34,370 bases of DNA from a virus (lineage: Duplodnaviria; Heunggongvirae; Uroviricota; Caudoviricetes). The position numbers were made by a program. This document shows, piece after piece, positions 12,001 through 15,000 of this stretch (positions within the stretch are counted from its first letter, which is position 1; the number at the start of each line of letters is the position of its first letter). The stretch lies in the IMG/VR virus record IMGVR_UViG_2737471860_000003; one strand, given 5' to 3'.

Positions 12001-15000
12001 TCTGTGCGCCAGTACTTCGAATCTAACTACTGTCTTAACGACCTTCAGAAAGCTGCTCTTCTTGCCGCTGGTGAGAATCGCTCCTCCCGTTCGCTGGAAG
12101 TTCACGAGTTTATGCGTCGTCCTGAAACGAAGGCTCTTGTGGAATTATTGGAAGAAGAAACTACGGGAGATTCCCGTAGTATTCCTGTCATCACCATTCA
12201 GGGGCGCAATGGTGGGACGTATGTCTGTAAAGAGCTGGTCTATGCATATGCAATGTGGATCAGCCCGGCATTCAGCTTAAAAGTGATACGTACTTTTGAT
12301 GCGCTTCATAATTCATCACCAGAAGAAACCACATCCGACAAAATTAAATCCGGGGTCATTCTGCTTGAATCAGCAGCAAAGACTCTAAATCTGTCAAACT
12401 CCTCGAAACTTGGTGCATACCAGAAATTATCAAAGGTAGCTGGTCTTCCTGAACTTATGCCGATCTATGCCATTGATGCACCTGCTGATGCGCCAGATGG
12501 TTCAAGCCGCCCTACGCTGTCGCTGAGTGCACTGCTGAAGCAGTATGGTATCCGCCTGACGGCTAATCAGGCATATCACCAGATGGCGAAGCTGGGGATC
12601 GTTGAACAACGCGAACGATACAGTCGTACCGCGATTAACAACATCAAAAAATTCTGGTCGCTGACCGCGAAAGGCTGCATGTTCGGCAAGAACATCACCA
12701 GTCCTGCAAATCCGCGCGAGACGCAGCCGCATTTCTTCGAATCCCGATTCCCTGAGCTGTTAAAGCTGCTCGATACCGTTCATTGAGGTGACTGTGAGAG
12801 CACTACTGACCCCTGAAATTGCCCCGCGTATGGGGATCGTATTGTTCAGACCTGGTTCAGAGCTGATGCCCCTGTTTATGCAGGGGCGTGTCCTGCTGGA
12901 GCCTGAGCCGGAACGTTATTCATCTTTTGCCAGTGGTGCCGTTCCGGCGGCATCACAACCGCTGGCGGATGATCCTGTCGTTCGGGCCGTGTTCCGCAAT
13001 GAGGCAGTGATCCGTCGTGCTGGTGGCGTGGAATGTCTTGAAAGCTGGTTACTTCGTGAAAAGGGCTGTCAGTGGCCTCATTCCGACTGGCACAGCGAGA
13101 ACATTACCACAATGCGACACGCTCCGGGCGCAATCCGTCTGTGCTGGCACTGCGATAACCAGCTGCGCGATCAGTTCACGGAACGGCTGGAATCAATGGC
13201 AACGGATAACTGTGCCCGCTGGGTGTTGTCTGTTGTGCGTCGGGATCTCGGTTTTGATGATAGTCACGTTGTGACAATGCCGGAACTGTGCTGGTGGCTG
13301 ATTCGTCATGATCTGGCGGATGCCTTACCGGAAAGTGCAGCCCGTAAGGCACTGAGATTACCAAAGCCTGTTGTGCCGTCTGTCACCCGGGAAAGTGACC
13401 TTGTGCCTTCGGTTCCTGCCACCAGCATCATCCAGGATAAGGCAAAAAAGGTGCTGGCGCTGAAAGTGGATCCGGAGTCGCCGGAGTCTTTTATGTTACG
13501 CCCAAAACGTCGCCGCTGGGTTAATGAAAAGTACACGCGCTGGGTTAAGACGCAGCCGTGTGCATGTTGTGGAAAGCCTGCTGATGATCCCCACCACCTG
13601 ATAGGTCACGGTCAGGGTGGAATGGCTACAAAAGCGCATGACCTCTTTGTGTTGCCTTTGTGCAGAAAGCATCACGACGAGCTGCATGCGGATACCGTGG
13701 CATTTGAAGAGAAGTATGGCTCCCAGCTGGAGCTGATATTTCGTTTTATCGATCGTGCGCTGGCAATAGGCGTGCTGGCCTGATTTTGTGGAGAAAGTTG
13801 ATGCGTGATATTCAAATGGTTCTTGAACGTTGGGGGGCATGGGTGGCAAATAATCACGAGGATGTGGAATGGTCATCTGTTGCTGCAGGTTTTAAGGGAT
13901 TAATTCCTTCGAAAGTAAAATCCCGCCCGCAATGTAGCGATGACGATGGCCTGATCATTAGCTCTGCGATGACAGTTCTTAAGAAAAAGGAACCGTATCA
14001 ATACGAATTACTGGAAATGTATTATGTGTATGGGGTTACATTACGGGCGTTGGGGGTAAAACTGGGGATATCACTTAATCAGGTTGTTATCAGACTGCAG
14101 AAAGCTGAAGGGTTTATTGACGGTTGTCTGGCAATGTTGGGGGTATCTTTAGAAATTGATTGTTACATATAGTAATAAATTCAATCAAAGTAAATAATCA
14201 TATTTTATTATAACCTCCTGATGATACCTGTTCATTGGGAGGTTATTATGGATAAAAATGTAGAGCATGTATTAGTTGATGCAATTGAAAATAAGCAATC
14301 TTTAACAGTCGTTTACTTAGGAGGGAGCCAGCCCGGAACATTAAGGAATATTTCTCCGATTAGTATAAATGGGGATAAATTGCGGGCAAGATGCCATAGT
14401 TCTGGAGCAGTAAAGGTTTTCAATCTTGGGAAAATACAGTTACCCAGTGACTCCTGCGCGGTATCTATGCACTATGGAGATTTAGAAGTTAAAGCTTATG
14501 AGACGATGCAGAGCGTAAATGACAACTTTCATGCCCTTTATCCTGAAGGACGATGGGGTGTTGATTTTAATGAGCATTGCTTTGCTTTATTTGATTTTTT
14601 TAAAAACGGGAAACGAAAAAAAACGGCATTTATGGCAATTGAGTTCAGGGAAAGAGATGAAGAGAAAATAATAACAGGTGTAACAATTGATATTGGTATA
14701 TCTGGAACAGTGATTTCTGAGAAGTCCCGAATCCCAAAAAGACGACCATGGGTAGTGGTTGGTCCCGAACACGGAGAATACAGTACTTATTCAACTTTGG
14801 ACAAGGCTGCTACAGCGTTTTTTGAGAGGCTTTCGTTGATAGCATCCGGCCTGGAAGATAATTGATTTTATGTTTGGTATTCAGAGTTCGCCGTGCTTAA
14901 GAAAGTCAAGATTCTAAAAATACTGAATGAGCTACTTGTGTTATAACAAAAATGCTATTAGTGTGTTAAGAGTGGTTACTTCGCCACACAACTTAAACCC

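Follow-up and report, generated by a model that had tools for sequence, protein, structure and literature searches.

A WYL-domain gene without a helix-turn-helix, placed by homology between the antiterminator gene Q and the late promoter of a lambdoid prophage of Escherichia coli

We analysed a stretch of 34,370 nt from IMG/VR record IMGVR_UViG_2737471860_000003 (hereafter, the window), a lambdoid prophage of Escherichia coli, and in particular the open reading frame (ORF) of 205 amino acids (aa) at positions 14248-14865, immediately downstream from the gene of antiterminator Q. All features are on the + strand unless otherwise stated. The product is a WYL protein lacking a helix-turn-helix (HTH) and carrying a family-specific alpha/beta C-terminal domain, and its gene is protein-coding and under purifying selection. 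Homology to a mapped late promoter places the gene upstream from PR', hence between Q and PR' and outside the Q-dependent late operon, and its ribosome-binding site (RBS) is enclosed in a very stable hairpin. Our best explanation of the whole, to which we assign about an even chance, is that this HTH-less WYL accessory gene would be the tail of the Q transcript, translationally locked, and would encode a stand-alone conflict factor. The gene itself was already annotated and assigned to a family of unknown function, and WYL domains, RBS hairpins and accessory genes adjacent to Q are all known kinds of element. What is new is the breadth of a WYL family having neither HTH nor WCX domain, its placement between Q and PR', also in prophages encoding Shiga toxin 2 (Stx2), and the strength and conservation of the translational lock.

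The protein and its family

The protein matches over its full length the hidden Markov model of PHROG 8498, whose function is unknown (E 4.4e-125, with residues 1-205 covering all 205 positions of the profile), so that the view of the first-pass annotation, which could recognise no family, does not hold. A word-indexed search returned few relatives. The exhaustive search revealed instead a wide family: at E < = 1e-3 there are 494 representative clusters, of which 190 remain at E < = 1e-10, and almost all are 185-210 aa in length and align end-to-end. Longer versions, of 356-374 aa, have a further domain at the C-terminus that Pfam does not match; a pair of tandem WYL domains occurs in one protein and an N-terminal transmembrane helix in another, and none of these forms was informative. 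In RefSeq the ORF is either a hypothetical or a 'WYL domain-containing' protein, the latter being the name given by the recent Prokaryotic Genome Annotation Pipeline. Searches of NCBIfam and of the PDB sequences found nothing besides WYL, and a literature search on the accession numbers and on PHROG 8498 found no papers. The genes STM14_3218-3220 of Gifsy-1, considered as a possible lead, proved unrelated.

The weak WYL-like pattern previously suspected at the N-terminus is confirmed by the fold. A DriD-like WYL/Sm barrel, with one helix before it, makes up residues 1-65: in the AlphaFold2 model (predicted local distance difference test, pLDDT, of 74.7 for the full-length protein) this domain consists of a helix and a five-stranded, Sm/SH3-like barrel that can be superposed on solved WYL domains. 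Alignment of the family profile to the DriD segment AIKGLQALSFRYEGGSTPGRTREVTP (E 1e-4) brings the pocket motif Y-x-GGSxPG-xx-R-x-I-x-P into register with DriD, and some members of the family exceed the gathering cutoff of the Pfam WYL model, PF13280 (P0232 with 28.6, P0141 with 24.3 and P0130 with 22.3 bits). The invariant or near-invariant residues of the N-terminal domain are Y23, G25, G26, S27, P29, G30, R33, P37, A47, C49, K56, F58 and K62, with R33 and K56 invariant across the family. The WYL pockets of DriD and CapW have single-stranded DNA (ssDNA) as ligand (PMC12041258, PMC11662680), and most likely the window protein too would bind single-stranded nucleic acid through this pocket.

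Neither the Pfam scan nor the model contains an HTH, and the WYL module begins at about residue 1. The C-terminal domain (residues 85-205) is of the alpha-beta-alpha type, precisely alpha-beta3-(loop)-beta2-alpha when modelled alone (pLDDT 83.1), with W103, K119, G121, P167, W168, A187 and F191 as invariant or near-invariant residues. Its identification as a WCX dimerisation domain was not supported. An enzymatic effector was also rejected, as the family shares no conserved acidic, histidine or other catalytic-type residue.

The known WYL proteins differ from this arrangement. Class A factors (DriD, CapW, BrxR, PafBC) have a winged HTH (wHTH), a WYL and a WCX domain in this order, whereas the window protein has neither the wHTH nor the three-helix bundle and its C-terminal domain is not WCX-like; since it has no wHTH and no WCX, it cannot be a DNA-binding regulator in the known way. 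WYL1, the accessory protein of Cas13d, has a ribbon-helix-helix before the WYL domain, unlike the window protein, which also has no CRISPR context and a different C-terminal domain. WYL domains are ligand sensors that switch on bacteriophage exclusion (BREX) systems, cyclic-oligonucleotide-based antiphage signalling systems (CBASS) and DNA-damage regulons and, to our knowledge, they have so far been understood almost only within HTH-containing transcription factors. A widespread family having no HTH, no WCX and a C-terminal domain of its own would show of what a WYL sensor is capable when it has no DNA-binding head.

Position relative to Q and PR'

The Q gene (13801-14172, 123 aa) belongs to the PF06530 family (Pfam E 4.6e-48) and is Q933/QuuD-like, in agreement with the RefSeq annotation of a copy of the locus (L002). 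The protein matches the Q21 structures 6P18/6JNX (E 2.7e-10) and has 56-65% aa identity to the Qs of Q933-type Stx phages, of 434B (DLP12-derived, QuuD type) and of PhiR40_1, the range being 56-58% against the Q of Q933-type Stx phages alone. A spacer of 75 nt (14173-14247) separates Q from the ORF. That the ORF is real and AT-rich, as first described, was borne out, as its GC content is 39.5% (32% at third codon positions) against 50.7% in the whole window. The low-GC island extends beyond the ORF, to Q (42.4%), to the spacer (25%) and to the 155 nt 3' of the ORF (37%).

The ORF is present in 74 of 5426 complete E. coli genomes, 52 of which carry it at > = 99% identity and 22 at about 78%; we refer to the latter as the 78% lineage. 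The Q 3' end and the spacer are likewise present in 74 genomes, and about 700 others share only the first 60-180 nt of Q. Among 44 near-identical copies in IMG/VR, the same Q is upstream in 43 and the same 165 nt are downstream in 41, and past position ~15030 the sequences split into several classes, which include a 75-aa ORF and a methyltransferase as in the window, an HTH gene with tRNAs and a NanS esterase (MS7163), or a methyltransferase with tRNAs and stx2A (O113:H21 FWSEC0010). Recombination breakpoints fall inside Q and immediately past the PR' leader. Between the two lineages, identity is about 81% for Q, 76.5% for the ORF and 82% for the PR' core, and the ratio of non-synonymous to synonymous substitution rates (dN/dS) of the ORF is 0.23. 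Homology thereby indicates that the Q 3' part, the WYL gene and the PR' leader are an old AT-rich module under purifying selection, swapped whole among late regions, also those with stx2. The gene is a horizontally moving accessory cargo tied to one Q allele: horizontal acquisition, proposed from the base composition, agrees with its presence in 74 of 5426 genomes and with other cargo, or none, beside related Qs, while the idea of a free cargo has to be given up, as the gene always accompanies one Q allele, being linked to the 3' third of it, and has diverged together with it.

The junction at window positions ~15030-15100, just past the PR' leader, recurs with at least three different late-region modules in IMG/VR and RefSeq. 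The 78% lineage of the module occurs in Stx2 prophages of E. coli strains that produce Shiga toxin (STEC) and lack the enterocyte effacement locus (LEE), at L016 2591-6648 (O113:H21 FWSEC0010) and at 94-3024 of the O104:H21 locus. The module lies there directly 5' of the methyltransferase, the tRNAs and stx2A, and in L016 the WYL start codon is GTG.

To place PR' we used the published data on Sakai, whose PR' transcript is 258 nt long and is cut by RNase E at +173 (GU|AUU) (Sy et al., PMC7547250). From these two independent numbers the start was reconstructed at position 646 of the Sp5 locus (L020), an A 7 nt past TATCAT, with the 3' end falling in the U-tract at position 903. Window positions 14964-15024 correspond to Sakai Sp5 positions -7 to +53 with 80.6% identity over 62 nt (E 3e-9), the Sakai start site included, and this homologue of the PR' core was located in the window only 3' of the ORF. 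In Q933-type Stx phages the order is TTTACG-16-TATCAT directly after the Q stop, then AAGAGTGGTTACATTGCCAC, then a hairpin with U-tract, and in four lineages (window, 78% lineage, PhiR40_1 and Stx phage) a TAnnnT hexamer is equidistant from AAGAGTGG. The candidate PR' of the window therefore spans 14936-14971, with -35 TTGTGT (14936-14941), a 17-nt spacer, -10 TAGTGT (14959-14964) and predicted start at A14971. Its matrix score is 6.46 in both WYL lineages; on this scale a value of > = 10 is reached at only 2 of 34,335 + strand positions, and one of > = 5 at 206 positions of the window.

The leader from this start (14972-15020) closes the non-coding stretch that follows the ORF (14866-15020), and contains a terminator-like hairpin at 14995-15020, with the GC-rich stem and the U-tract of an intrinsic terminator: an 8-bp stem (14995-15002 with 15009-15016, 5 G-C pairs), followed by U6, with a free energy of -13.8 kcal/mol and a z-score of -3.1. 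The ORF had been said to end at this terminator. The hairpin and U6 do exist, but 130 nt downstream of the stop codon and at +25 to +50 of the putative PR' transcript, and they are not the ORF's own, since the block from ~14947 on is present in 1102 of the 5426 genomes, irrespective of the ORF. Of this block, phage Ayreon with its different Q has only the terminator and the downstream part, a pattern that fits a promoter-proximal part specific for the Q type.

With the Sakai Sp5/Sp15 transcript StxS-L (PMC7547250) the window thus shares the first hairpin and its U-tract at 81% identity, and differs from it in having neither the 3' part that gives the 74-nt small RNA (sRNA) StxS nor tR' at +258; StxS was accordingly discarded as a candidate in the window, homology being limited to the first ~53 nt. 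The Sakai homologue of the terminator-like element is a canonical-looking hairpin with U7 at L020 669-695, at +24 to +49 of the PR' transcript, which may be either read through or overlooked via size selection; as that transcript continues to +258, the window terminator may be leaky. A sub-threshold Rfam match to the sRNA STnc130 spans the terminator on the minus strand (14987-15123; 30 bits, where the gathering score is 55; E 0.037).

According to the first-pass annotation, the gene occupied the classic Q-to-lysis slot of lambdoid late-operon morons such as stx. In this case PR' would be in the 75-nt spacer, the gene would have its own terminator and the hairpin would be temperature-sensitive. 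The ORF is indeed directly 3' of Q with a hairpin and U6 downstream, PR' abuts the Q stop codon in lambda and in Q933-type phages, and the spacer has weak promoter-like sites (scores 5-6). We consider this explanation unlikely, because the sequence homologous to the start and leader mapped for the Q933-type PR' sits 3' of the ORF, outside the PR'-to-lysis interval that holds stx, and because the terminator belongs to the block of 1102 genomes. Nor is any spacer promoter conserved, since only ~26 nt of spacer precede the stem in the 78% lineage, with an 11-nt indel relative to the window. The best + strand match, ATGATA-17-TATTAT (14221-14249), was rejected, as its start would fall inside the ORF and it is not conserved. 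The likeness to the late-operon morons, in which stx lies 3' of PR' and tR', is that of an AT-rich variable accessory gene near Q, whose lineage is found in some Stx2 prophages; the difference is that the WYL gene comes before the PR' homologue and should therefore escape control by Q/PR'. The Q-to-PR' gap is empty in Q933-type phages, and in PhiR40_1 it holds a 148-aa ORF on the opposite strand, followed by the same PR' block; the Q gene of PhiR40_1 has 96% DNA identity where its 5' part matches, and divergence sets in ahead of the stop codon. In 434B, within the DLP12-derived region, the gene next to Q is nmpC, on the opposite strand.

In this prophage class the boundary of the late operon would therefore shift, with PR' 0.8 kb from Q, and for this reason comparisons of the Q-to-stx 'pR' region' in LEE-negative STEC would also span a gene of the early class and a strong RNA structure. 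We propose that in lytic growth the early (Q) transcript would run on into the WYL gene, which would be its 3' tail, because the 75-nt spacer contains no terminator and, by consensus scan, no + strand promoter able to serve the ORF. This transcription would end at the PR'-leader hairpin.

The hairpin over the ribosome-binding site

Downstream of an AU-rich unstructured part (14173-14209), the spacer folds into a hairpin at 14210-14246, in which the 5' arm 14210-14224 (AUAACCUCCUGAUGA) pairs with the 3' arm 14232-14246 (UCAUUGGGAGGUUAU) across a 7-nt loop (14225-14231). The RBS, GGGAGG (14237-14242), is entirely within the 3' arm, with the ATG of the ORF 1 nt past the stem, and the 5' arm holds the anti-Shine-Dalgarno sequence AACCUCCU, a mimic of the 16S rRNA 3' end. 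Sequestration of the RBS, already described from the sequence, is thus confirmed; the 8-9 bp originally given to the stem are too few, as by folding it has 15 bp, with two G.U pairs, and a free energy of -20.0 kcal/mol, and flanking A-U pairs extend the helix to about 20 bp.

The z-score of the hairpin is -3.6 to -4.4 against dinucleotide shuffles. We also folded all 45-nt segments of the + strand of the 34 kb and regressed energy on GC content: the GC-corrected z-score is -5.3, which ranks second among these structures, and the hairpin is the sole site with < = 40% GC to reach -20.5 kcal/mol in the scan.

The stem is retained in the 78% lineage as 12+3 bp with one 1x1 internal loop (z-score -3.4 to -3.5). 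There, four one-sided changes preserve pairing (A-U to G.U, C-G to U.G, G.U to G-C and U.G to U-A), in addition to one mismatch and two loop changes. No double compensatory change was seen between the window and the 78% lineage, so that support from covariation is only moderate. The hairpin is as in the window in 34 of the 44 IMG/VR copies; six have G.U changed to G-C, and three have C-G changed to C.A, with the RBS weakened as well. A Shine-Dalgarno sequence within a stable stem, kept in relatives, is what characterises a translational repressor hairpin of the sequestering type. In another of these copies, IS1 (InsA/InsB) is inserted in the loop (L051 2200-2975, UViG_2563366940_000006), putting ~0.8 kb between the anti-Shine-Dalgarno arm and the RBS and giving a natural 'unlocked' allele.

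Gating by temperature, which the first-pass annotation had entertained, is very unlikely: in silico the probability of the Shine-Dalgarno sequence being paired goes only from 0.999 at 25 C to 0.998, 0.997 and 0.993 at 37, 42 and 55 C, respectively. An RNA thermometer was consequently rejected, the RBS being > 99% paired from 20 to 55 C in foldings between 20 and 60 C, and the same result speaks against the temperature-sensitive hairpin of a late-operon moron. The AUG at 14221, within the 5' arm, was rejected as a true start or leader peptide because it is in frame with the ORF in the window and out of frame in the 78% lineage, and because there is no upstream Shine-Dalgarno. No known RNA family could be assigned either to this hairpin or to the PR' leader, as no Rfam match there reaches the gathering score and the hits by E-value are noise.

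In our explanation, translation would be very low or conditional through this pairing, of -20 kcal/mol, between the Shine-Dalgarno and its anti-Shine-Dalgarno mimic, and the hairpin would be opened by cleavage or by an RNA- or protein-based opener. Such an opener would be needed because temperature alone could not melt so stable a hairpin, and RNase III is a candidate since a stem extending to ~20 bp has the size suitable for this enzyme. The RNase III site of the lambda N leader is a translational operator in which a sequestered Shine-Dalgarno is opened by processing. Both are an RBS in a long stem of a lambdoid early transcript; this may be considered an analogy only. The conserved and very stable hairpin would be a clean case, open to testing, of a phage accessory gene silenced almost completely at the level of translation.

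The hairpin could instead chiefly serve Q, as a 3' stabiliser, as an RNase III site for retro-regulation or as part of a convergent antisense-Q promoter, the occlusion of the RBS being incidental. The RNase III size of the ~20-bp structure would suit this function, and so would a strong minus-strand sigma-70-like site at 14235-14207 (ATGAAC-17-TATAAT, matrix score 10.2), which overlaps the stem and points antisense into Q, in a paQ-like manner. We regard this alternative as very improbable: the arms are an exact anti-Shine-Dalgarno mimic paired to a Shine-Dalgarno, and in the 78% lineage the minus-strand -10 is degraded to TACTGT while the pairing is retained.

Distant relatives and possible role

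Most members of the family are in bacterial contigs without phage genes, and an environmental subfamily with 6 genome loci has no member in IMG/VR. In a prophage (L013) the WYL-family gene is directly 3' of a CI-like repressor divergent from cro, and in another element (L026), which also has ParB, a single-stranded DNA-binding protein (SSB) and an integrase, it is directly 3' of an HTH_3 repressor. Pseudoalteromonas phage vB_Psp_PY3 has a 369-aa fusion form between an integrase and a LexA-family repressor, and a relative is also found in a 209-kb cyanophage. Among the phages and mobile elements, L005-L007 have it between tail genes and Rha. In bacterial contigs the gene occurs with an integrase fragment amid runs of small unknown genes (L008), near PIN7 (L009), or next to a HEPN RiboL-PSP (L027) or a DUF2283 (L023) gene. 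Upstream neighbours are heterogeneous (HEPN, SAP, HTH_3, DUF2283 or none). With no recurring neighbour family, the gene appears to be a stand-alone one that frequents accessory-gene slots and variable islands.

Two independent metagenomic contigs, L024 (5010-12024) and L025 (5010-12591), share a gene string around the WYL-family gene, in the order SAP-domain protein (329 aa), WYL-family gene, CoiA-like nuclease, 124-aa ORF, HSP70/MreB-like protein (830 aa) and AAA ATPase (476 aa), which looks like an uncharacterised defence island.

On the whole, we propose that the pocket would bind a single-stranded nucleic-acid ligand, the C-terminal domain would act by protein binding, and the protein would be a stand-alone factor in phage-host or phage-phage conflict. 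As conflict-type contexts in support of this we counted the CI-like and HTH_3 repressors, the integrase and repressor of PY3, the HEPN, PIN and DUF2283 neighbours and the CoiA-HSP70-AAA string. The role in conflict is the weakest step, and an effector action through the C-terminal domain is a guess, because this domain has neither an informative structural match nor a conserved partner gene. The presence of most members outside recognisable phages, together with the absence of the subfamily from IMG/VR, gives a weak lean towards a defence-type, host-side role, which we judge more likely than counter-defence.

Counter-defence could be exerted by a decoy: on induction the WYL protein would absorb the ssDNA signal or hinder WYL regulators of the host such as CapW and BrxR, keeping CBASS, BREX or similar systems repressed. 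CapW senses ssDNA and lowers the lambda yield on induction about 100-fold (PMC11662680), hence a decoy would pay off. A gene in the early lytic transcript beside Q would be well placed for it, the DriD-like pocket motif is conserved, and relatives are present in vB_Psp_PY3 and in the 209-kb cyanophage. We nevertheless consider the decoy rather improbable, since the majority of the family is in bacterial contigs and the environmental subfamily has no IMG/VR match, since a sponge requires abundant protein whereas the RBS is locked, and since the protein has no WCX-like domain for heterodimerising with host regulators.

A further alternative is a trans-acting sensor, which would be the first example of a split HTH and WYL regulator, and in which the HTH-less protein would report ssDNA from replication or damage to the co-inherited Q, or to CI-like repressors elsewhere, tuning late transcription including that of stx2. 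If this were true, late transcription and stx2 in O113:H21-type prophages would be under a DNA-damage and replication checkpoint, whose own synthesis would be gated by the locked RBS. Strict linkage to and co-divergence with one Q allele, with breakpoints inside Q and after the PR' leader, the distant members directly 3' of the CI-like (L013) and HTH_3 (L026) repressors, and a low expression suitable for a regulator are in line with such a sensor. We think it quite unlikely, as the adjacency is possibly mere physical linkage, an HTH gene is upstream in only 2 of ~17 distant contexts with no recurring neighbour family, and related Qs function without a WYL gene (Q933-type phages, PhiR40_1). In a broader version, more likely than the split regulator, PHROG 8498 together with its ~500 relatives would constitute a new family of single genes whose products sense nucleic acids in defence or counter-defence.

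Several observations weigh against the explanation that we prefer, that of a translationally locked conflict factor in the tail of the Q transcript. At the level of the protein, the window sequence scores 16.5 bits with PF13280, below the gathering cutoff of 21.8, the C-terminal domain has no close or informative structural relative, and PADLOC-DB v2 gave only weak matches to WYL 'associated signalling' models (E 1.4e-3 and 7.7e-3). An all-against-all BLAST of the flanking ORFs of 19 loci found no conserved partner gene, linking only near-identical contigs. As regards transcription, the location of PR' derives from homology (62 nt, 81%) and from arithmetic on published numbers, its putative -35 and -10 hexamers are weak (3 of 6 consensus positions each), and weak promoters in the spacer are possible, the best matrix scores there being 5.9, 5.2 and 4.9, or 5-6 compared with 6.5 for the candidate PR'. 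Co-transcription with Q is itself deduced from the sequence. As regards translation, distant homologues have no comparable 5' structure (z-score -1.4 to +2.4), and the hairpin is therefore a trait of the local E. coli context and not of the family. Finally, a defence gene that has to act in the lysogen would hardly be expected to have a locked RBS and to lie in an early operon under repression, and a locked RBS would hardly suit a stoichiometric ssDNA sponge either.

Around this locus, a DUF968 gene (12788-13783) precedes Q, and the PR' leader is followed by a winged-helix-like ORF of 75 aa (15118-15345), an N6/N4 DNA methyltransferase (15496-16557), an S21-type holin (16897-17112), a DUF1327 gene (17117-17668) and a lysozyme (17994-18527). 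Between the 75-aa ORF and the methyltransferase there is a hairpin of 18 bp (15369-15410, -28 kcal/mol), and a 13-bp stem followed by U7 lies immediately 5' of the holin gene (16804-16840); both are probably additional terminators for the Q-modified polymerase to pass. Upstream, the window contains isrK (8110-8186, 59 bits) and then the C4 antisense RNA (8211-8298, 82 bits), both above the Rfam gathering score, and this pair at 8110-8298 is a P1/P7-type c4/ant immunity module within the lambdoid prophage.

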